Virus record (IMG/VR): IMGVR_UViG_3300018877_000052
Span: 1-40,122 of that record
Origin: a virus
Lineage: Duplodnaviria; Caudoviricetes
Strand: one strand, 5' to 3'
DNA: 40,122 nt
Below the pieces are notes generated by a model. The model had not been told where the DNA came from. It did not search any database and was given only the letters and a program-made list of their open reading frames with translations. Both the position numbers and the translations under genes were made by a program. Shown piece by piece: positions 1,113 through 17,800 of this stretch (position 1 is its first letter; each line of letters opens with the position of its first letter).

Positions 1113-1140
1113 AAGACCACTTTAAGAAGTGGTCTTTTTT
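1113..1140 (+). terminator. Rho-independent terminator overlapping the integrase stop codon
   Basis: AAGACCACTT-TAAG-AAGTGGTCTT followed by T-run. Confidence 0.8.
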
Positions 1141-2291
1141 GTTAGAGTATCAAAATGCTTTGCAGCTTCTTGGTCCGCAGATCGGAGAGCATGACCATAA
1201 ATATTCATCGTGGTTAAGATGTTTGCATGACCAAGTCTCTCAGAAATGATCTTAGCATGCACACCTTTATTAATCAGCAGTGTGGCAGACGTATGTCGTA
1301 AATCATGAAAACGGATGTATTTTAGATTGTGCCGTCTGATAAACCGAGACCACCAAGTTTTCACACTAGAAGGATATAGTGGTTTTCCATTCCATGAAGA
1401 GAAGACAAAAAAACGGTCTCCTCCTTGCCATAATTCCTCAGCATTAGCCCGATCTTCAATAGATTGTTGTTTCAGGGCCTTCAGATCCGGTATTACACTT
1501 GAAGGTATAGACACGATTCGAACAGAGCTTTTGGTCTTTGGTTCCTTAATGAGGTAGCCTGTCTCTTTAACAAATGTGAGTGACTGTCTAACATCAATCG
1601 TTCCTTCTTCAAGATTTACATACTTCCACTCGAGCCCCAGCAATTCGCCCCTTCTTAGCCCCGTAGTTAAGGCTAATGTAATCATAACTCTCCACATTAA
1701 ATCTTCCTTTTCAAGAGCAGCGAAGAGGAGTTGAACTTCCTCCTCATCATAAACAGACATCTCCGTATGTTCGACTTTAGGTTTCTTAATTGACTCCATA
1801 GGGCTAGTTTTAATGACTTTCCACTCAACCGCCCGGTTGAAGATATTTTTTAAAACGCGATGAATATATTCAATCATCCCAGAAGATAACTTGCCTTCTT
1901 TACCATCTTTTCTTTCGCCATTATCTTCTAATTCCCGAATGAAACTGACGATATGGAGAGGCTTTATCTGATCCAGCCGCATATGCCCGAACTTAGGGAT
2001 GATTCTGTTGTTTATTTGTATGAGGTAATTTTCAAGGGTTTTTGGGCTTAGCTCCCGCTTAGCATATTTGTCTTTCCATTCATCAATGAAGGCTGCTACA
2101 GTCATTTTTTCCGGGGCGATATACTCACCGGCTTCAACTTCCATAACAAATTTGGCAAGCTCTTTTTCAGCTTCGCGCTTTGTGGAGACTTTTACTGTTT
2201 TTGTTTTCTTGATACGTTTTCCATTCGCATCGTATCCGGCCTCTACAACTAATAGAAATGAGTTTGGACCACGTTTTTGTATACTAGCCAT
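1122..2291 (-). CDS. int: Tyrosine recombinase / phage integrase (ICEBs1-Int-like)
   Basis: Motifs TGLRRGEL, HDLRHT, LGHA...Y; N-terminal arm-binding domain. Confidence 0.97.
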   Translation of the reverse strand: MASIQKRGPNSFLLVVEAGYDANGKRIKKTKTVKVSTKREAEKELAKFVMEVEAGEYIAPEKMTVAAFIDEWKDKYAKRELSPKTLENYLIQINNRIIPKFGHMRLDQIKPLHIVSFIRELEDNGERKDGKEGKLSSGMIEYIHRVLKNIFNRAVEWKVIKTSPMESIKKPKVEHTEMSVYDEEEVQLLFAALEKEDLMWRVMITLALTTGLRRGELLGLEWKYVNLEEGTIDVRQSLTFVKETGYLIKEPKTKSSVRIVSIPSSVIPDLKALKQQSIEDRANAEELWQGGDRFFVFSSWNGKPLYPSSVKTWWSRFIRRHNLKYIRFHDLRHTSATLLINKGVHAKIISERLGHANILTTMNIYGHALRSADQEAAKHFDTLTKKTTS

Positions 2292-6631: not shown

Positions 6632-7570
6632 ATGGCACAAGTTTTAGTTAATACCAAATACTTATCACGCGAAATGTGGTTACAGTACCGCACAAAGGGA
6701 TTCGGCGGTAGTGATGTTTCAGCAATTGCGGGTTTGAACAAATGGAAGTCTCCTGTACAGGTGTGGCTAGAAAAAACGGGACAAGCACCGTTAGAAGAAT
6801 CACATAGTGAAGCAGCATACTGGGGAACAAAGCAAGAAGCCCTTGTTGCCGAAGAGTTTGCTTTACGAACAGGTCTGAAAGTGAGGAGATGCAACCAGCT
6901 CCTGCAACATCCAGAGTACCCATTCATGCTGGCCAACGTCGACCGCTTGATAGTAGGGGAAAAAACGGGTCTCGAGTGTAAGACTGCATCTGAATACCTT
7001 AAAGAGCTATGGACTGGCGAGGAAATTCCAGCGGAATATCTCTTACAGTGCCAGCATTACATGGCGGTTACCGGTTATGAAGCATGGTGGATTGCAGTAC
7101 TTATCGGCGGCAATAAGTTCGTGTATAAGAAGATCGAGCGCGACGAAGAGCTCATCACTCAAATCATCCAAATTGAATCAGACTTCTGGAACAAACATGT
7201 GCTGACAAAGATCCCTCCAACTTTCGATGGATCTGACGCTTCGACTGAGTTGATTAAGCAAATGTATCCGGTTGGAGAGCCGGAGAGTGAAACAGAACTG
7301 CCACTTGAGGCGGACAAGCTAATCGAAGAGCTTGCAGCTATCAAAGAGCAGGCAAAAGAGTACGAAAGTCGAGTTGCCGAACTGGAGAACCGCCTCAAAG
7401 CCATGCTCGGCGAGTACGAAACAGGGATCGCCAGCAATCATCTTATTACCTGGAAGACGGTCACTTCGAATAGGGTTGACATACAAGCACTAGCTAAAGA
7501 TCACCCAGCTATTTATGAGAAGTACATTAAACCATCCATTTCACGACGTTTCAACGTAAAAGCTGTTTAG
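6632..7570 (+). CDS. YqaJ-family (lambda-exonuclease-like) recombination nuclease
   Basis: WL..R..GFGGSD, ANVDR, LECKT, QCQHYM motifs. Confidence 0.95.
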   Translation: MAQVLVNTKYLSREMWLQYRTKGFGGSDVSAIAGLNKWKSPVQVWLEKTGQAPLEESHSEAAYWGTKQEALVAEEFALRTGLKVRRCNQLLQHPEYPFMLANVDRLIVGEKTGLECKTASEYLKELWTGEEIPAEYLLQCQHYMAVTGYEAWWIAVLIGGNKFVYKKIERDEELITQIIQIESDFWNKHVLTKIPPTFDGSDASTELIKQMYPVGEPESETELPLEADKLIEELAAIKEQAKEYESRVAELENRLKAMLGEYETGIASNHLITWKTVTSNRVDIQALAKDHPAIYEKYIKPSISRRFNVKAV

Positions 7571-7583
7571 GGGGAATTGAGAC

Positions 7584-8417
7584 ATGGCCACCAATCAGGA
7601 TTTAAAAAACCAACTGGCGAACCGAGCGAATAACTCCCCAGATAAACCTCTAACGCCGGAGCAAACCATTGCTGCTTATCTAAAAAGAATGGCCCCAGAG
7701 ATTGAAAAGGCGCTTCCTTCTCATATGAACGCAGAGAGGATGGGTCGAATCGCTCTCACCACGATCCGGTTAACACCGAAACTCCTGGATTGCAGCGTTC
7801 CTTCTCTGATGGGTGCCATCATGCAGGCCGCTCAGCTAGGGTTGGAACCAGGACTCATCGGACATTGCTACATCATTCCTTACGGCAAAGAAGCCACTTT
7901 CATCATTGGTTATAAAGGCATGATTGATTTAGCTCGGCGCAGCGGCAACATCGAAAGCATTTATGCTCACGCTGTTTATGAGAAAGATGAGTTTGATTAC
8001 GAGCTCGGTCTCCACCCGAAGCTGCATCATAAGCCTGCCACTGGTCACCGCGGAGAAATGAAATATGTGTACGCTGTGGCTCACTTCAAAGATGGTGGCT
8101 ATCAGTTTGAAGTCATGGATACCGGAGAGATTGAACGCCGCCGTAAACGTTCCAAGGCGGCGAATAACGGTCCGTGGGTTACAGACTACGAGGAGATGGC
8201 GAAGAAAACTGTTATACGCCACATGTGGAAGTACCTACCGATCAGTATCGAGATCCAGCAGCAGGCTGCGCAAGATGAAGTGATCCGTAAGGATGTCACG
8301 AGTGAGCCTGAAAGTATTTACACTGACCCGATCGATATCTCTGGTGCCACAGTGGAGACAGTGCCCGAAGAGGGCAAAGTTGATCAAGATCCGACGCTAT
8401 TTGATGAAGGCAAATAA
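7584..8417 (+). CDS. recT: RecT-family single-strand annealing protein
   Basis: AAQLGLEP, IGYKGMIDLARRSG, PW..DYEEMAKKTV motifs. Confidence 0.95.
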   Translation: MATNQDLKNQLANRANNSPDKPLTPEQTIAAYLKRMAPEIEKALPSHMNAERMGRIALTTIRLTPKLLDCSVPSLMGAIMQAAQLGLEPGLIGHCYIIPYGKEATFIIGYKGMIDLARRSGNIESIYAHAVYEKDEFDYELGLHPKLHHKPATGHRGEMKYVYAVAHFKDGGYQFEVMDTGEIERRRKRSKAANNGPWVTDYEEMAKKTVIRHMWKYLPISIEIQQQAAQDEVIRKDVTSEPESIYTDPIDISGATVETVPEEGKVDQDPTLFDEGK

Positions 8418-10378: not shown

Positions 10379-10774
10379 GTGGAGAGGATGAATCAAAGTC
10401 TTCATCTCGTCATACCTGGTAATCCACCGACAATCAATCATGTGTACCGGAACATTGCCATCAACCGAAGGATTACAACCAAGGAGGGCCAGCGATGGGT
10501 AAGGGAAGTGCAGCTGCTGGCTAAAGCATCAATCAAACGACAAGGCTGGATTTTGAGCGAGGAAGAAAAACTGGTGGCTGAGGTAGTAATCTTCTGGCCG
10601 ACACGCAGAAAACGCGACGTGGAGAATGTGGGGAAATTGCTTTGAGACGCATTAGAAGGTATTGTCTACGAAAATGACCATTGGCTGCTGCCGCGGTACA
10701 TGGACTTTCAAGTCGACAAGCATAACCCGAGGGTAGAGATTCGTTTCTATCGACAATCGGAGAGCATCGCATAA
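10379..10774 (+). pseudogene. RusA-like Holliday junction resolvase interrupted by in-frame TGA at 10643-10645
   Basis: RD.EN..KLL*DAL.G..Y.ND continues in frame to NPRVEI...TAA 10774. Confidence 0.85.
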
Positions 10775-10798: not shown

Positions 10799-10960
10799 AT
10801 GAGTAACTCTCGAGCACATAAGCCAGCACCCAATCATCCATGGAGGAAGTATCGAATTCTACGCAAGGATGTATCTGAGCATATTTATCGGTCCGGGACG
10901 CTGGCAAAAGTAAATACAAACATCATCGGAAGTGGACAATCGTGGAACAGCTGTAAGTGA
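10799..10960 (+). CDS. Small hypothetical protein (53 aa, KPAPNHPWR)
   Basis: Translated manually; GGGAG RBS. Confidence 0.55.
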   Translation: MSNSRAHKPAPNHPWRKYRILRKDVSEHIYRSGTLAKVNTNIIGSGQSWNSCK

Positions 10961-10962
10961 TA

Positions 10963-11184
10963 TCACGACGGATAAGGCAACCAATGATCTCCTTCAAAAA
11001 GCTCACGAACAGTACTGTATGTACGAACCGACAAGTCAGGGAAGACGATAGCAAGTCGGCCGTCGGGGATTGAAATGGCTTTACTAGAGGACTCTACAGC
11101 GTGTTCAATCCCTAGTTCATCGAGTGTTTGTCGAAGGTAACTAGCTTCATCCCAGGTGACGAGGTAGTAAAATGATTTATCCAT
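10963..11184 (-). CDS. Hypothetical protein
   Basis: 73-aa ORF with AAGGAG RBS. Confidence 0.75.
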   Translation of the reverse strand: MDKSFYYLVTWDEASYLRQTLDELGIEHAVESSSKAISIPDGRLAIVFPDLSVRTYSTVRELFEGDHWLPYPS

Positions 11185-11268: not shown

Positions 11269-11538
11269 TCACTTACTATGAATTGCTTGTTGGGCCGTAT
11301 GTTCATCTTCGGGTTTAACATAAATATCATACTGAATATTATCTACTCTTCCCTGGAGTTGTGAGGAGTTGTAAGTGTTATTGAATGTTTCAGTACGATA
11401 TTTCACGCCATGAGACTGCAGCTTGCTGATTACTCTAAAGTAGTTTTCACTCCCAAAGGATGTATACACTAAAACTTTGTATTTTGAGAAAAGCGAAAAC
11501 AGACTCATAAAAAGTATCTCCTTTTCAACGAGATACAT
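11269..11538 (-). CDS. Hypothetical protein (likely start at MSLFSLF, 11508)
   Basis: AAGGAG RBS; C-terminal YDIYVKPEDE..AQ motif. Confidence 0.7.
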   Translation of the reverse strand: MYLVEKEILFMSLFSLFSKYKVLVYTSFGSENYFRVISKLQSHGVKYRTETFNNTYNSSQLQGRVDNIQYDIYVKPEDEHTAQQAIHSK

Positions 11539-11612
11539 CTTAATACGTACTGGTCAGAATTCAGTTTCTGGTCATTTGTCACAATCTGTATTGAGGAGAA
11601 CGGAGGGGAAGT

Positions 11613-11837
11613 ATGGATAATACAAAGCAAATAAAAATCATGTGCATTGAAAAACTTCATCCCCAATACCTGCGCCAAATTGAGGTTGGAAACCAATACA
11701 CAGCACGGTTAAGTCGAGACAGTGTAAGTCCAATCATTTTTGTTTCCGCTGGAAAAGAAGAGATCCCTGTCAGGTATTACAAGAAAGACGGAGACTTATT
11801 CAAAGCAGTAGAAGCTGTATTTAGATTGGTATCGTAG
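11613..11837 (+). CDS. Hypothetical protein (cassette)
   Basis: GGAGG RBS directly after site 11574; stop abuts site 11837. Confidence 0.7.
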   Translation: MDNTKQIKIMCIEKLHPQYLRQIEVGNQYTARLSRDSVSPIIFVSAGKEEIPVRYYKKDGDLFKAVEAVFRLVS

Positions 11838-11854
11838 CTTGCCTAAACTAGCAC

Positions 11855-12220
11855 TTAGTCAAATGTGAGGAAATCATCAAATGTCTCTCCATCCAAATTA
11901 AAGAGCAGTTTGTACCAGCCAAGTTTCTTGCCTTTAAAAACAATTGGAATATAAGAGACAACATAATCAAACCCATATGAGATAGCCTCATAGTTTGAGC
12001 TCTCGTCCCATCTATCAATGAATAGGGCTACTTCTTTTAGAGAGATATTTAAATCTTCAGGTCTAAAGTCATCTCCAAATAATGATTTGAATCCTTCGAT
12101 ATCATCGCTTTGGAAGTTCCGAAAACATTTCCAAAAAGATTTTATAGACCTGATTTCAACCTCATGTTTAAGGCACCATTCTTTTAGAAAACCACTATTC
12201 ATTCGATTCACAACCTTCAT
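11855..12220 (-). CDS. Hypothetical acidic/aromatic protein (antisense cassette)
   Basis: 121-aa ORF; stop lies inside site 11837. Confidence 0.7.
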   Translation of the reverse strand: MKVVNRMNSGFLKEWCLKHEVEIRSIKSFWKCFRNFQSDDIEGFKSLFGDDFRPEDLNISLKEVALFIDRWDESSNYEAISYGFDYVVSYIPIVFKGKKLGWYKLLFNLDGETFDDFLTFD

Positions 12221-12264
12221 GACTATCTATAACAATCTGTATTGAGGAGAACGGAGGGATAATT

Positions 12265-12561
12265 TTGAGAGGAAACTATTTTGATGAGCATCGAAGGAAA
12301 ATGCGAATAATGCAGCGAGTTTTCTGGACAATCTTCTCACTCACGTTGTTTTTAATCGTGGCAAGTTCGTTGATTTATGGGTACTTTGCTCTTTACGTGT
12401 TGGATAACCCAGAAAGTGTTGGTAATTGGTTCGGAAGATTACTCAACGGAATATCAGGTCATAAATCACAACTAGCAATATGTCAAATGGAGCCCATAAT
12501 CATGTGGGGTTATCACATTTCCGAAATACACAGAATGTGTATTACCATATGGGAAGGTTGA
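12265..12561 (+). CDS. Hypothetical single-TM membrane protein (cassette)
   Basis: GGAGG RBS after site 12225; one TM helix; C-terminus reads through site 12461. Confidence 0.6.
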   Translation: MRGNYFDEHRRKMRIMQRVFWTIFSLTLFLIVASSLIYGYFALYVLDNPESVGNWFGRLLNGISGHKSQLAICQMEPIIMWGYHISEIHRMCITIWEG

Positions 12562-12754
12562 AGATCAGCATCCTAATAATGACATAAATGATTGCATCAA
12601 TAGAAGAGGCAATGACTAGAACGATTCCAATCCAAAGAAGTCTCGTCTTTTCGAAAATGAAGGAAAAAACCGTTAGTAATAGGCCGCAAACTAACATGAT
12701 TATGCAAACTAATAAAATCACTAAAAGCAAGTCAAATTCCATGAATCTCACCAA
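12542..12754 (-). CDS. Small two-TM membrane protein (antisense cassette)
   Basis: Highly hydrophobic 70-aa ORF; stop inside site 12525. Confidence 0.55.
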   Translation of the reverse strand: MVRFMEFDLLLVILLVCIIMLVCGLLLTVFSFIFEKTRLLWIGIVLVIASSIDAIIYVIIRMLIFNLPIW

Positions 12755-12862
12755 ATTTTATCTGAGGACTTGTCGTAAGGACAACCATATTTTACCTGTT
12801 ATGCATGGTTTTCTACAATAGTTATTGAGGAAAACGAAAGAATATAGCACATTTGCATCGAA

Positions 12863-13228
12863 TCATTTTTTGTTTCGCATTGATTCCCAGAGGAGGGCGA
12901 TTATGTAGAAAGCCATCAAAAGTAGAGATGCAGTTAAAGAAACATCATAATATCTTTCAAACTTTTCATGTGACCATTGATCGTCACCTAATATGAAAAA
13001 TGCTACGGAATTACTTACTGAAATGCCGTCATAGATTCCAGGAATAAGACTTTGAGTATAGTTTTGACCGAGGCAAGACGTCGAAAGAATACTAAACATT
13101 AGAAGTATTAACAACATGCGAGAAAGTGGATAGGGCACATTTGCTTTCCGAAAAACAATGTACAAAATTACAATAAAAATTACGGCAGACAAATGGAATA
13201 AAAACAAAACTAACCCTCCCATAAACAT
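12863..13228 (-). CDS. Membrane protein, about 3 TM (antisense cassette)
   Basis: 121-aa hydrophobic ORF. Confidence 0.7.
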   Translation of the reverse strand: MFMGGLVLFLFHLSAVIFIVILYIVFRKANVPYPLSRMLLILLMFSILSTSCLGQNYTQSLIPGIYDGISVSNSVAFFILGDDQWSHEKFERYYDVSLTASLLLMAFYIIALLWESMRNKK

Positions 13229-13322
13229 CTATCTTTAACATCAATTTGTATGACGGGGTTTGGAAAATTTTGTTTCAAACAAAGATTCAAAATTATACAC
13301 AACGGTAAATGAGAAGAATGAA

Positions 13323-13538
13323 TTACTTTTTAGAAATAAGAACGATAACTAAAAAGATTATGTACAGTACAGTACTCCCCAATCCCAATAGTAATCCAAG
13401 GATCATGTCAACAAAAAAGAGTCCAGACTGATTATATAGGTAAATACTGAATCCAATTACAATAAGCCAAAGAATTGTTCCGATAGTAATAAGCATTGGT
13501 ATCACCCTTGCTGCTTTAAAAATCAGTATTCTTAACAT
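13323..13538 (-). CDS. Small two-TM membrane protein (antisense cassette)
   Basis: 71-aa hydrophobic ORF; stop 3 bp from site 13292. Confidence 0.55.
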   Translation of the reverse strand: MLRILIFKAARVIPMLITIGTILWLIVIGFSIYLYNQSGLFFVDMILGLLLGLGSTVLYIIFLVIVLISKK

Positions 13539-13639
13539 GTATTTTAAATTTTTATTAAAAGAAAAAAAGTACTAATAAAAATTAGTACCCAAAGGTTCAT
13601 TTATCACAACTCACATTATGGAAAACGGGAGGAAATTCG

Positions 13640-13924
13640 ATGTTAAAAGCTGGCGATAAAGTAACTTGGACAAGCCAATCTGGAGGGTCTACAAAGCGAA
13701 AGACAGGAATCCTGCTCGGTAGCGTAGAGGCAAAAGAAAGTGGATTTGCTGCGCTAAATCAGTTCAAGGGAAACGAATTGTTTGCATCCGAGAACAGAAG
13801 CAAAATCAAGTTCCAGGATACAAACATTGTGTACAACCGAGCAATTGTTGAGGTTCCACGTGGCGGCAAGAGTGTCCTGAGCGATTACTATGCGCCGAGT
13901 GTTACTCTTGTAAGGCTCGTTTGA
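13640..13924 (+). CDS. Hypothetical phage protein (cassette; GDKVTWTSQ)
   Basis: GGGAGG RBS after site 13599; TGA stop inside site 13919. Confidence 0.75.
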   Translation: MLKAGDKVTWTSQSGGSTKRKTGILLGSVEAKESGFAALNQFKGNELFASENRSKIKFQDTNIVYNRAIVEVPRGGKSVLSDYYAPSVTLVRLV

Positions 13925-13958
13925 CAAAACACACGATATGTAAAACGAGGTGAAAGAC

Positions 13959-14141
13959 ATGTATCTTGTTTTGATTGAAGGAGAAGTAAAGCGATCCTAC
14001 AGAGTAGATGATGTGGTGGATTTCATCGAGGACAAGGTTGCGTTTGAGGTTGACTCAACCGCGCTTATACAGGAATTGCGATGCATGGAATATGGGGAAA
14101 CCATTGTTTTGCGGGACGACTGCAAGGTAATTCGTATCTGA
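13959..14141 (+). CDS. Hypothetical phage protein (cassette)
   Basis: GAGGTG RBS after site 13919; stop overlaps site 14141. Confidence 0.7.
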   Translation: MYLVLIEGEVKRSYRVDDVVDFIEDKVAFEVDSTALIQELRCMEYGETIVLRDDCKVIRI

Positions 14142-14184
14142 TTCAACAAAACATTACTTGTGATGAATGGGAGGTAGTAATGAC

Positions 14185-14298
14185 ATGAAATGTCCGCAAT
14201 GTGGTGAGGACTTTTGGGTTAGTGGGCCAAGGTGGGGCGTTGAAGTTTGCCATGAGTGTGGCGCAGATAAACCTAAAAAAGAAGACCAAGATGATTAA
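14185..14298 (+). CDS. Small zinc-ribbon protein (37 aa, CPQC...CHEC) (cassette)
   Basis: Translated manually; two CxxC motifs; GGGAGG RBS after site 14141. Confidence 0.6.
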   Translation: MKCPQCGEDFWVSGPRWGVEVCHECGADKPKKEDQDD

Positions 14299-14347
14299 TG
14301 GCAAGTCGTTTTACTAAATGAAACTTGTGGAGAATGGAGGGGACAGG

Positions 14348-14638
14348 ATGGAAGAGTGGAAGAAGTTTGCCGCTGGGTTTAATACAACAAGATGGTGCGT
14401 GGGGTTGCAGATACACGATTGGCGACAAAAGCGCGGGTACGGTGTTATCGAAGTAAATATCCTGCCACTCACATTTTACTTTCGATTCGGGAACGGTCTG
14501 AAAAAACTATATTGCCAATACTGCGAAAGTTACATTGGCGATGTTAATCCTGAAGAAAGCGAGTCAGTTTCGTGCATGGATTGTTATCGGCATGACTGGC
14601 GGGACAGGATGGAAAGCAGAGCGAAAACGCTCGTTTGA
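14348..14638 (+). CDS. Hypothetical protein with C-terminal CxxC...CxxC (cassette)
   Basis: GGAGG RBS after site 14308; TGA inside site 14633. Confidence 0.7.
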   Translation: MEEWKKFAAGFNTTRWCVGLQIHDWRQKRGYGVIEVNILPLTFYFRFGNGLKKLYCQYCESYIGDVNPEESESVSCMDCYRHDWRDRMESRAKTLV

Positions 14639-14721
14639 CATAATGGATAAAGAGAAAAGCCCCTAATTAGGGCAAATGTTCTTTACTATAAGCAAGTTTA
14701 ATAGCTAGGGGGAATAGGAAG

Positions 14722-15174
14722 ATGAGCGCTCAACAAATATCATTGATACCGGAGTTGAATCGATCAGCCACAGAAAAAAAAGTTAAAGAAGCACTGGAAA
14801 AAGCGAGACTTTTTATTCAAGTAGGTTATCATCCAGGCATTGAAGTAAGTACAACTGCTGGTTACAACATCGCTCCCCCATCGCATACAAATCAGTTTCA
14901 TAGCAGTACAGAGAATGCAGCAATAAAAAACGTAGACATTGAACGGGAAAGAAAAGAGCATGTGCAACGGGTAATAACGGCGGTAAAGCGTTTAGAAAAA
15001 AGGGAAAGGGAGTTAATTTTGATTCGCTGGTTTGGTGATGAGGATAAATCAGATATCGAGACTTATATGGATCTATGTTTATCTCCTGCGACCTATTATC
15101 GAATAAGGAGTAGGGCGTTTTTGAAGTTGGCTCTTGCATTGAGATTGGAAGTATTTAAGGGGATTGAGAAGTGA
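14722..15174 (+). CDS. ArpU/RinA-family late transcriptional regulator
   Basis: C-terminal L...ERELI..R.F...LS..TYYR.R.RA motif; position at the early/late boundary. Confidence 0.9.
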   Translation: MSAQQISLIPELNRSATEKKVKEALEKARLFIQVGYHPGIEVSTTAGYNIAPPSHTNQFHSSTENAAIKNVDIERERKEHVQRVITAVKRLEKRERELILIRWFGDEDKSDIETYMDLCLSPATYYRIRSRAFLKLALALRLEVFKGIEK

Positions 15175-15276: not shown

Positions 15277-15340
15277 ACCGGGTAGATAGCAAATAAATGC
15301 TTTCTTCTCAAAAATTTAAATGTTAGGGAGATGGTTTAGT

Positions 15341-17800
15341 TTGAAACACATCATTACATTCAAGGGAAAAGAGAAAGTAAAGAACAAGGAAAAGCTGGGC
15401 AAACAAATTGAAAAACACTTGAGGGAGTGGAAGAAATCAAAAATTATTAAAGAATTTAAGCATTTTCCTGAAATCTTTATCCTTGTAGATGCAGACGAAG
15501 AGTTGCTAAAAGAGTTGAGGAACGATCCTGATGTACTAGATGTTGAAGAAGATTCAGATGATATTTATCCAACAGCTCAAATAACAGAATGGTCTCACAG
15601 TCAAGGTCATAGTGATATCGCAGGATTCCATTCTCGTGGCTATACGGGTGCCGGAGTTAAAGTAGGTTACCTTGACACCGGAGCAGCACCACACGAAGAC
15701 CTGGTTTACGCTGGGAAGCTAAACGCTTACCCCGAAAACGGTGTAACCGCAGACCATGACTTTGACGGGCATGGGACAAATGTTGCAGGTATTATTGGTG
15801 CGAAAAACAATGGTCTAGGTTATGTGGGTGTCGCACCCGATTGTCAGTTATACGGTGTTAAAGTGGATAAAAATGACGGCGGTAGTTTTGTCAGAAGTGC
15901 AATAATTGATGGGGTAGATTGGCTTGTTGACCAAGGAGTAAAGATCATTAATTGTAGCTTTGGATCTGGAGTAGATAGTACTGCGCTTAAAACAAGTTTT
16001 GAAAACGCATATAAAAATCACGATGTACTGTTTATTGTGGGTGCTGGTAACGAGGCAGCCGGGGGTCAATATCAAACAAACCCAGACCCAAATAACTGCG
16101 TAAACTACCCAGCCAAGTATGATTTTGTTATAGCTGTAGGCACAGTATCATACAACGGAGCATTGGCTGCATCTTCTAGTCGTGGCCCGGAAATTGATGT
16201 ATCTGCACCTGGAGTAAGTGTAAAAACTACACGACCAAGCGACGCAAATAAAGCAGGAACCGACGTGTTAACACCAAGCAATGAGTATATTTCATTTAGT
16301 GGAACATCTTGTGCAGCTCCTCATGTTGCAGGATTAGCAGCGCTTTATCGTCAAATGTACCCTAATTATACTGCGGATCAAATTCGTAGTTTGATCGAAA
16401 CCAATGTAATTGACTATGGAGCTCCTGGAAAGGATATCGCATATGGTAAAGGCGTGGTAGTGTCTCCGTGGGCAGAAAGAAACGTAAATCGCAAGGTGTT
16501 TACTGGCACTTCGATAAGCGGTACTGTTGCACAGCCGGAAGGTGACTTTTATGAATACACTGCATCTACAACGGGTAATGTAACATTTACTTTTACTGGA
16601 TCTGGTTTTACCCCACGTATGGAAGTTTTTGATGCGACTGGAAAGCGTGTTGGAGGTGGAAATGCCAGCTCTCCAGTTGTCGCATCGGTAGTAGCTGGTC
16701 AGAAGTATTATATTGGTCTTTATTCAGCAATTAATATTCAAGCTGGTGGTGCATATACCATTACAAGTGATGTTCCAGCTTCAGGAGGGGGTAGTACACC
16801 AGGGAGCTCCTTTTCCAATGCAATCGTGGTATCAGGTACATCTTCGAGCGGCATAATTCCTTCTGGAGGCGAATTGTACTTCAAGTATACTGCTCCTACT
16901 ACGGGAAGCTATACTTTAACTCTTACAACCAGTTTTGATTCTTACTTGGAATTGTATAACTCTTCTCAAACTCTTTTAACTTTCGATGATGATAGTAACG
17001 GTAGTGGTCAGCCTAAGATTTCATATAACCTAACTGCAGGTCATGTATACTATCTTAAAGCGTTTGGTTATAACCACAATACATCTTACTATGGAGCTTG
17101 CAGTTTGAACGTTATTGTACCAAGTGGCAGCGGTGGTACCGCCCCTACAAACGTCAAAATTACTGCACAGAACCCGAGCTCTAGCCAAACTAGTATTCCT
17201 CTTACATGGTCGGCAAGCGGAGCAACATCGTATGACGTTTACCGAAATGGTTCTCGTATATTGGGTGGCACTACTGCAACCAGTTACACTGATACTGGAC
17301 TGTCTGCAAATACTACTTATTCATATTATGTTGTGGCGACTAACGCCTACGGATCCACAACAAGTGCAACAGTTACGGGGAAAACAGCTGCAAGTAGTGG
17401 TGTAACTCCAACCACTATCATTGAAGATTTTTCGGATGACAATATGAATTTCAATTTTTCCGGTGCATGGGTGAGAACGGATAATGGGCTCTATCGTGGA
17501 TCAACAGCAAATGGAGGAGTTACAGAAACAGCATTTACAGTAACTGTTCCAACAAATGCTACAACACGCAGTTTAACAATGGATTTCCGTGTTGCGAATG
17601 CATCCTCTTCTGCTGGAGAAAAATTTGAGGTTTTGGTAAATGATGTGGTCAAATTTACCAGTACACAAGCTGATAACACGGTCAGAAATACAGGATTAAT
17701 TGTTCTTGGAACCGGTACGCAAACTATTAAGATAAGAATAGCCAATACTTCAGGTGTTACCTATGCGTACATCGATAACGTACAGGTTAGTTGGTCTTAA
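15341..17800 (+). CDS. S8 subtilisin-like serine protease with propeptide, two PPC-like domains, FN3 and C-terminal beta domain (moron)
   Basis: Triad motifs LDTG, HGTNVAG, GTSCAAPHVAG; DDDSNG PPC-like and YDVYRNG/YTDTGL FN3 motifs; no hydrophobic signal peptide. Confidence 0.93.
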   Translation: MKHIITFKGKEKVKNKEKLGKQIEKHLREWKKSKIIKEFKHFPEIFILVDADEELLKELRNDPDVLDVEEDSDDIYPTAQITEWSHSQGHSDIAGFHSRGYTGAGVKVGYLDTGAAPHEDLVYAGKLNAYPENGVTADHDFDGHGTNVAGIIGAKNNGLGYVGVAPDCQLYGVKVDKNDGGSFVRSAIIDGVDWLVDQGVKIINCSFGSGVDSTALKTSFENAYKNHDVLFIVGAGNEAAGGQYQTNPDPNNCVNYPAKYDFVIAVGTVSYNGALAASSSRGPEIDVSAPGVSVKTTRPSDANKAGTDVLTPSNEYISFSGTSCAAPHVAGLAALYRQMYPNYTADQIRSLIETNVIDYGAPGKDIAYGKGVVVSPWAERNVNRKVFTGTSISGTVAQPEGDFYEYTASTTGNVTFTFTGSGFTPRMEVFDATGKRVGGGNASSPVVASVVAGQKYYIGLYSAINIQAGGAYTITSDVPASGGGSTPGSSFSNAIVVSGTSSSGIIPSGGELYFKYTAPTTGSYTLTLTTSFDSYLELYNSSQTLLTFDDDSNGSGQPKISYNLTAGHVYYLKAFGYNHNTSYYGACSLNVIVPSGSGGTAPTNVKITAQNPSSSQTSIPLTWSASGATSYDVYRNGSRILGGTTATSYTDTGLSANTTYSYYVVATNAYGSTTSATVTGKTAASSGVTPTTIIEDFSDDNMNFNFSGAWVRTDNGLYRGSTANGGVTETAFTVTVPTNATTRSLTMDFRVANASSSAGEKFEVLVNDVVKFTSTQADNTVRNTGLIVLGTGTQTIKIRIANTSGVTYAYIDNVQVSWS

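Follow-up and report, generated by a model that had tools for sequence, protein, structure and literature searches.

The stretch of DNA analysed here, referred to as the window, is the whole of the 40-kb provirus record IMGVR_UViG_3300018877_000052 (40,122 nucleotides, 86% complete), and our subject is an array of small genes separated by short, related sites between positions 11574 and 14660. The window encodes an integrase, CI/Cro, RecE/RecT, a replication initiator, Ant, a RusA-like open reading frame (ORF) and an ArpU-type activator, after which come the contractile-tail morphogenesis genes; the array occupies a low-GC stretch between the RusA-like ORF and the ArpU gene. Each site consists of two 11-bp arms around a 6-bp core. 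The different cores are lettered a to i in the list below, which also gives the points where homology to three relatives (L097, L296 and L300) or to related metagenome contigs begins or ends.

11574-11601, plus strand: site 1, core a; L097 homology stops 10 nt beyond it, and the core is also found in L097, L296 and L300
11613-11837, plus strand: cassette gene 1, 74 aa, without a family match
11837-11864, plus strand: site 2, core b, between the ends of two convergent genes
11855-12220, minus strand: cassette gene 2, intact; its relatives (90 compared) begin at residue 7 of the ORF
12225-12252, plus strand: site 3, core a again, with a right arm and ribosome-binding site (RBS) like those of site 1
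12265-12561, plus strand: cassette gene 3, a small membrane protein matching DUF7248 slightly below the cut-off; the ORF reads through site 4
12461-12488, plus strand: site 4, core b again; contig joints at 12467-12489
12542-12754, minus strand: cassette gene 4, 70 aa, hydrophobic
12808-12835, plus strand: site 5, core c; contig joint at 12815, loose end at 12836
12863-13228, minus strand: cassette gene 5, 121 aa, hydrophobic; also on another contig across 12874-13271
13292-13319, plus strand: site 6, core d, recognised by position weight matrix (PWM) and by the core order in relatives
13323-13538, minus strand: cassette gene 6, 71 aa, hydrophobic, in an interval of 29% GC
13599-13626, plus strand: site 7, core e, at the start of L296 homology
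13640-13924, plus strand: cassette gene 7 (phrog_11941), 95% identity to L296, same slot
13919-13946, plus strand: site 8, core f, at the end of L296 homology and at contig joints
13959-14141, plus strand: cassette gene 8 (phrog_36459), by family match
14141-14168, plus strand: site 9, core g; L097 homology begins at 14150, just ahead of the core
14185-14298, plus strand: cassette gene 9, a 37-aa zinc ribbon, identical in L097 and in the same slot
14308-14335, plus strand: site 10, core h; L097 homology ends at 14329 and L296 homology begins at 14318
14348-14638, plus strand: cassette gene 10 (phrog_13979), common to L296 and L300
14633-14660, plus strand: site 11, core i, the last before ArpU; L296 identity ends 1-3 nt after the core, with loose ends at 14654 and 14658

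The original prediction had named 12 related 28-bp sites with imperfect inverted-repeat arms around a 6-bp core, usually with one gene per interval. All 12 sequences lie where it placed them, and 11 stand as sites: with a leave-one-out symmetric PWM, every one of the 11 scores above 10 bits (10.7-24.4), a level reached on average 0.24 times (maximum 3) in 300 Markov simulations of the array region and nowhere in the window outside that region. The 28-bp, 11-6-11 geometry holds, with arm complementarity of 4 to 9 positions out of 11, and the ten intervals contain one gene each, six forward and four reverse. The twelfth sequence, at 12525, which had been called weak, was rejected: it reaches -7 bits at the best nearby register and -17 bits under a model trained mostly on relatives (a score attained by 4% of window positions), and L097 has no site at the corresponding place. 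The relatives-trained model also scores low for 11837 (2.7 bits forward, 9.5 reverse), 12225 (6.2) and 12461 (5.7); despite these scores, the cores of all three hold matching places in the order of L097, L296 and L300.

The arms and the cores behave differently. Two-fold symmetric arm positions (T3, T4, C7, A10, A11, G22 and A26) are kept at all addresses, whereas the core is address-specific. The 11 sites of the window present nine different cores in the order a-b-a-b-c-d-e-f-g-h-i, the sites at 11574 and 12225 sharing core, right arm and RBS (34 nt, 91%) and those at 11837 and 12461 sharing the core. Stop codons lie inside or abut the arms at 11837, 13919, 14141 and 14633. The idea that site 3 arose by truncation of the gene at 11855-12220 was rejected, that gene being full length by comparison with 90 relatives.

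For comparison, we took 147 stretches that lie upstream of ArpU-like genes in IMG/VR and in GTDB Brevibacillaceae genomes and scanned them with a core-masked PWM; 38 array-bearing stretches, the window included, were chosen by eye, with one duplicate and several single-hit stretches excluded. Although cores were masked in the search, the 198 sites in these 38 loci fall into only 33 cores, nine of which account for 168 sites. Pairwise core order was concordant in 383 of 397 comparisons, against 0.63 (maximum 0.69) in 2000 shuffles; the phages are not all independent, L084 and L085 being near-identical. In 118 of the 198 sites, an RBS-like word comes after the right arm or overlaps it. At least three clustered sites were present in 59 of 298 stretches, 55 of them non-redundant including the window, mostly Brevibacillaceae prophages. 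The cassette genes, in contrast to the cores, are mostly unrelated, since 212 cassettes from 54 loci split into 157 clusters. L097 is 88-94% identical to the window at the nucleotide level in the homologous parts; it has every one of the nine window cores, in order, and one more, but the only gene in common is that between 14141 and 14308. In L300, eight of the nine cores are present; in L296, seven cores were called, a weak core-b site and core i being visible in the alignment, and the window cassettes at 13599-13919 and 14308-14633 are shared.

These comparisons do not support free reordering of cassettes as originally proposed. Apart from the conserved core order, all 27 wholly shared cassettes (six of them from the L084/L085 pair) keep both cores and the same slot, and none of the 212 cassettes yielded an inverted shared copy. 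Where cassettes share a 5' end, the core is kept in 45 of 48 cases, and at shared 3' ends in 39 of 51, compared with 11% at random. From the arrangement in relatives, the system is mostly one of gene replacement at fixed slots, and repeated cores appear to mark occasional duplication or insertion; cores are repeated, or their order starts again, in at most 17 of 41 loci, an upper bound because cores one mismatch apart were merged. In L061, L078, L083, L198 and L199, entire core runs are repeated two to three times with different genes inside, which suggests that arrays grow by capturing cassettes in tandem.

Among the nearest relatives by ArpU (L001-L003, L004, L012 and further prophages with a short region), none has an array, and therefore ArpU similarity does not predict one. 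In a class-wide search with an RNA model, too insensitive to show absence, 50 of 151 genomes had scattered single matches, and clusters were confined to Brevibacillaceae; a generic spaced-dyad count failed to pick up even known arrays.

Homology between related phages breaks preferentially at the sites. Alignment ends fall in site zones in 79 of 223 cases versus 7% expected, a five-fold enrichment, and where only one of the flanking genes is shared, the two arms part company. When only the upstream gene is shared (12 pairs), arm identity is 0.93 on the left and 0.67 on the right; when only the downstream gene is shared (20 pairs), it is 0.77 and 0.89; and when neither is shared (1509 pairs), it is 0.74 and 0.57. 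These identities show that each arm travels with the gene on its own side, the left arm with the upstream one and the right arm with the downstream one. Related phages that occur together in a biocrust metagenome also branch at the sites in its contigs, but these contigs are not independent support, given that X1 may be the source of the window and X2 may overlap L097 and L300. No contig joints deleting 11574-12225 or 11837-12461 were seen, which is no evidence either way as contigs drop rare variants. Together with the Xer-like geometry, the breakpoints support the view, put forward originally, that recombination sites bound the single-gene cassettes.

A candidate enzyme is a mini tyrosine recombinase of about 180 aa, missing from the window and encoded at the array head in some relatives. 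The other genes of the window that bear on it and on the alternatives are the following.

1122-2291, minus strand: prophage integrase, the sole PF00589 protein within the window
6632-8417, plus strand: RecE-like exonuclease and RecT-like annealing protein, the basis for a rival mechanism
10963-11184, minus strand: conserved 73-aa gene (phrog_24281), a marker of the array head, beside which the mini-recombinase gene starts divergently in many relatives
11269-11538, minus strand: 89-aa gene, occupying the place of the mini tyrosine recombinase in relatives
14722-15174, plus strand: ArpU-family late activator, the right border of the array

The mini-recombinase has a PF00589 catalytic domain with the R-H-R-H-Y residues intact, among PDB entries it best matches the archaeal XerA catalytic domain (4a8e, E 1e-13), and in some arrays its gene comes directly after the divergent 73-aa head gene. 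The array-head recombinases form one clade (support 0.994). Sites lie downstream of the gene in 11 of the 12 closest viral loci, two of which have only one or two sites, and the twelfth locus ends at the gene; loci with less than 67% identity to the array-head recombinase have no Brevibacillus-type array. Within the clade, a site begins 0-8 nt past the stop codon in 10 of 19 loci, as against 1 of 101 upstream bins, and in L300 an intact gene stands ahead of the window's own series of cores. The same type of site, often as a pair 84 nt apart, also follows more distant mini-recombinases, most of them encoded right behind ArpU in phages of low GC, according to a PWM trained on those same loci. 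Loci with the recombinase gene have a site after ArpU in 39 of 48 cases, loci without it in 5 of 51. Further loci came from 11 GenBank phages, picked out of 177 records and absent from the training set: in phi105 and in 7 of 7 Streptococcus phages (about five of these being independent, and six having one core in common with phi105), the distance from the gene to the top forward site was 6-137 nt. In an Acetoanaerobium phage, the top site (9.7 bits) was at +112, and in a Listeria record at +457. An early view of the mini-recombinase as irrelevant, with any member present in 7 of 38 stretches, was revised after searching from the recombinase side. Two sites are often 84-85 nt apart downstream of the gene in the L126-L170 group and in L316, L317 and L319, from Bacillus-type and Streptococcus phages.

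The array is real, ordered and addressed. We put at roughly 0.6 the probability of the interpretation that, judging from these comparisons, it is an ordered series of single-gene cassettes whose sites are crossover points of a tyrosine recombinase, served in trans by the phage mini-recombinase that the window does not carry. Taken separately, site-specific exchange at the cores is likely, and such exchange with the mini-recombinase as the enzyme is somewhat favoured. Under this model, the arms would bind the recombinase, and strand exchange would require matching non-palindromic cores, as it does at dif or lox. Genomes of co-resident phages would cross over at two different cores, through a cointegrate and its subsequent resolution, and the double crossover would swap cassettes with order and orientation unchanged. 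Rare mismatched-core events could produce repeated runs, such as a-b-a-b in the window, as well as deletions, and repeated cores would permit excision of 11574-12225 or 11837-12461 as a circle. A forward cassette would land ready for translation in the early operon, because the right arm often extends into an RBS.

Several observations weigh against this model. With respect to the sites, the control with site-less gene junctions is weak (49 of 134 versus 39 of 154, with crude ORF calls), some breakpoints lie beyond the right arm, 12 of the 51 shared 3' ends have a different core (missed sites are possible), and in L300 core g stands before a right arm and a gene that the window has after core h, an exception which, like the repeated cores, would fit a rare mismatched-core event. 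The common distal core, similar to a -10 hexamer, might owe its conservation to a role as a late promoter. With respect to the enzyme, what ties the recombinase to the site is genetic linkage. The contrast between loci with and without the recombinase gene in the frequency of sites after ArpU is partly circular, the PWM having been trained there, and confounded by phage lineage; phiCD146 has no site after its mini-recombinase gene. The mini-recombinase is absent from the window, from the complete record of L097 and from the record of L296, so that in the window the enzyme would have to act in trans. It is present in only 2 of 16 arrays found independently of the recombinase with the head gene in view; no copy at E<=1e-25 was found in the genome G023, where the sites form about nine clusters; any member of the family occurs in only 21 of 61 family genomes; and several copies are broken. 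Furthermore, the N-terminal core-binding domain is missing, profile matches beginning at about XerD position 126, and the mini-recombinase may therefore need a partner.

The same addressed exchange could be performed by host XerD/RipX, alone or with XerC, or by a chromosomal XerS-family enzyme, with the mini-recombinase as a passenger or accessory, although we consider this unlikely. The hosts do encode XerC and XerD and apparently an XerS-family protein, most arrays have no mini-recombinase in cis, orphan chromosomal arrays exist, and RipX reportedly binds Bsdif and the Escherichia coli dif at both halves (PMC5357621). Host dif, located once in each of five genomes with the motif from the Kono 2011 supplement (PMC3025954), cuts both ways. 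The left arms match its XerD arm at about 7.3 of 11 positions and the right arms at about 5.5, and the right arm of the head site is close to the textbook XerD arm; yet no arm resembles the host XerC arm (about 4.2 of 11 for left arms, 3.3 for right arms), host dif itself scores -6 to -10 bits under the phage-site model, and arm position 10, which is C in every listed Bacillales dif D arm, is mostly A or G in the phage arms. Site-like sequences of note were lacking next to chromosomal xerC, xerD, the XerS-family gene and other conserved recombinase genes in 17 stretches. This type of site tracks the mini-recombinase into phages of Streptococcus and is rare after ArpU where the gene is missing. 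Streptococci are reported to use XerS and difSL (PMC5357621). NCBIfam, though, lists a further XerD-named family, PRK02436, which we take to be streptococcal.

Somewhat less likely again is that no site-specific enzyme is involved and that the sites are conserved boundary sequences for short-homology recombination by the phage RecE/RecT. Genes for both proteins are present in the window, same-core sites are alike at about 20 of 28 bases, the breakpoints past the right arm would fit, and a boundary-sequence model of phage mosaicism exists (PMC3233612, citing Clark 2001), which the array resembles in that short conserved intergenic sequences mark the points of module exchange. Unlike the boundaries of that model, those of the array share symmetric arms and differ only in the address core, which points to site-specific recombination over boundary-sequence homology: homology alone would not select arm positions that stay constant at all addresses next to an address-specific core. 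Furthermore, same-core arms are barely more alike than different-core arms (0.74 left and 0.57 right versus 0.72 and 0.49), and the linkage to a tyrosine recombinase would go unexplained. We regard it as very improbable that the sites are operators or start-associated regulatory sites of a dimeric transcription factor, with breakpoints coinciding only as both are intergenic. The sites are indeed palindromic and intergenic, many have the RBS-like word at the right arm, and the weakness of the site-less junction control would be expected. However, a dimeric regulator gives no reason for a private 6-bp spacer kept in a fixed order across unrelated flanks, some sites separate the ends of converging genes (11837) or precede reverse genes, and promoter matches in the region are at chance (13 versus 12.8+/-3.8).

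The array was originally described as integron-like or pdif-like, and neither label fits in detail. Integrons comprise IntI, attI and arrays of attC cassettes, and arrays without a recombinase (clusters of attC sites lacking integron-integrases, CALINs) are common. The present system is similar in its single-gene cassettes, in the recombinase and primary site at the head in some relatives and in the absence of the recombinase from the window. In contrast to integrons, the enzyme is a 180-aa catalytic domain encoded codirectionally with the array, and the cassettes occupy fixed slots in both orientations, with no stacking at one attI. Neither attC-like hairpins (best folding z above -2.5 in 9 of 11 sites, the 28-mers folding at 0 to -4.4 kcal/mol) nor an Rfam match was found for the sites, and the window has no IntI, PF00589 being confined to the prophage integrase; against TIGR02249 (cut-off 265 bits), that integrase scores 52 bits and the mini-recombinase 34. 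In recombinase-mediated cassette exchange with heterospecific lox or FRT sites, incompatible spacers give ordered exchange that keeps orientation. The array shares the mutually incompatible spacers and the two-site exchange, but it is natural, has about ten addresses and involves a different enzyme family.

The dif modules of Acinetobacter Rep_3 plasmids (pdif, XerC/XerD) have the same 28-bp, 11-6-11 sites around small modules. They need distinct C and D arms in alternating orientation and identical or near-identical spacers, modules being swapped between matching spacer pairs by a proposed route of cointegrate formation and resolution (PMC13141974). Replacement between matching spacer pairs is seen here too, in all 27 shared cassettes and in L097 and L296, with one exception in L300. 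The phage sites are not pdif, because the two arms are alike in resembling XerD arms and not XerC arms, and C/D and D/C orientations do not alternate; unlike pdif, they score best on one strand throughout, show no inversions, form about ten addresses in a fixed order, are carried by a tailed temperate phage and are tracked by a phage recombinase. By analogy, module replacement at pdif is the closest working parallel, but the array is best placed outside both the pdif and the integron families. With chromosomal Xer/dif systems, including the single-recombinase XerS, XerH and XerA, the array has in common the site geometry and XerD-like arm bases, and the mini-recombinase gene adjoins a site just as the XerS and XerH genes are reported to (PMC5357621, PMC3025954). 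It differs from them in its many sites with different cores, in the negative scores of dif and in having no link to dimer resolution. Unlike integrative mobile elements exploiting Xer (IMEX), which enter chromosomal dif through a single dif-like attP, the window has its own integrase, and no array core equals the host dif core.

The mini-recombinase is annotated just as an integrase or site-specific recombinase beside ArpU in phi105 and in Bacillus and Streptococcus phages. We found no published description of the array or of the function of the mini-recombinase in the literature covered, which did not include subscription papers or bioRxiv supplements; PMC6669507 and PMC4168068, in the parts available, merely name phage recombinases. 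We give about even odds to a broader proposal suggested by the distribution of sites and genes, namely, that this widespread 180-aa recombinase is the enzyme of a natural addressed cassette exchange, that in Brevibacillaceae a single site expanded to about ten ordered, incompatible addresses, that recombinase-less prophages and orphan chromosomal arrays form a shared cassette pool, and that mosaicism here is programmed. Whether phage gene swaps exactly at gene boundaries reflect targeted boundary sequences or illegitimate recombination followed by selection is a long-standing question (PMC3233612). The boundaries described here have the anatomy of recombinase sites, an address code and a candidate enzyme, making the question testable with a 180-aa protein and 28-bp substrates. 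If the proposal is correct, a common orphan phage recombinase would acquire a function, the route of host-like genes into the phage early operon would be explained, phage mosaicism in the array region would be programmed rather than random, and a natural set of about ten orthogonal sites would be available for ordered DNA assembly.

In complete chromosomes, sites cluster at many places. Nine of 12 such clusters had no match to the landmark proteins of the window phage within 14-19 kb, by an insensitive test. These orphan arrays have the same cores in largely the same order and contain host-like genes, for example NIPSNAP and DinB. They probably descend from prophages by decay and might serve as reservoirs of cassettes. 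In L196, L198-L202, L204 and L208, on the G023, G033 and G014 chromosomes, the host-like genes are mostly on the reverse strand.

At the array head, a degenerate site at window position 10958 was considered and left uncounted, at -20 bits. A one-mismatch core-like hexamer occurs at 10969-10974, the place matching the core-i site of L296, and its arms (10958-10985) give that same score. In L296 (reverse strand, about 7990), the core-i site runs directly into the 3' end of the homologue of the 73-aa head gene, for which the ESM Atlas returned unnamed clusters only; in L097 the head gene is present twice, and homology between L097 and the window is interrupted at about 10958-10985.

The host of the window is inferred to be Brevibacillus-type, because its ArpU is 70% identical to a Brevibacillus aydinogluensis locus and the closest arrays are in Brevibacillaceae genomes. 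The RusA-like ORF (10379-10645) looks broken in this copy, since a TGA follows after 88 aa, compared with 131 aa for the L097 homologue, and related contigs have another base at 10645. Between ArpU and the small terminase lies a moron (15320-17800), not flanked by array sites, for a protease of 826 aa that belongs to the subtilisin family (S8) and contains FN3 and galactose-binding-like domains.

An XerS-family recombinase seems to be encoded in the hosts in addition to XerC and XerD: L173 (G020:C1, about 2.228 Mb) scores 428.8 bits against a cut-off of 267, one copy having been scanned, with matching hits in G006, G015, G023 and G032. Besides the single dif, several palindromic dif-like sites with AT-only centres surround the terminus of Brevibacillaceae chromosomes, at 2.64, 3.45, 3.53 and 3.64 Mb in G014:C1, at 2.74, 3.39 and 3.57 Mb in G023:C1, and also in G006, G020 and G032 (L193-L195). 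These could be targets of the XerS-family enzyme or terminus-binding sites.

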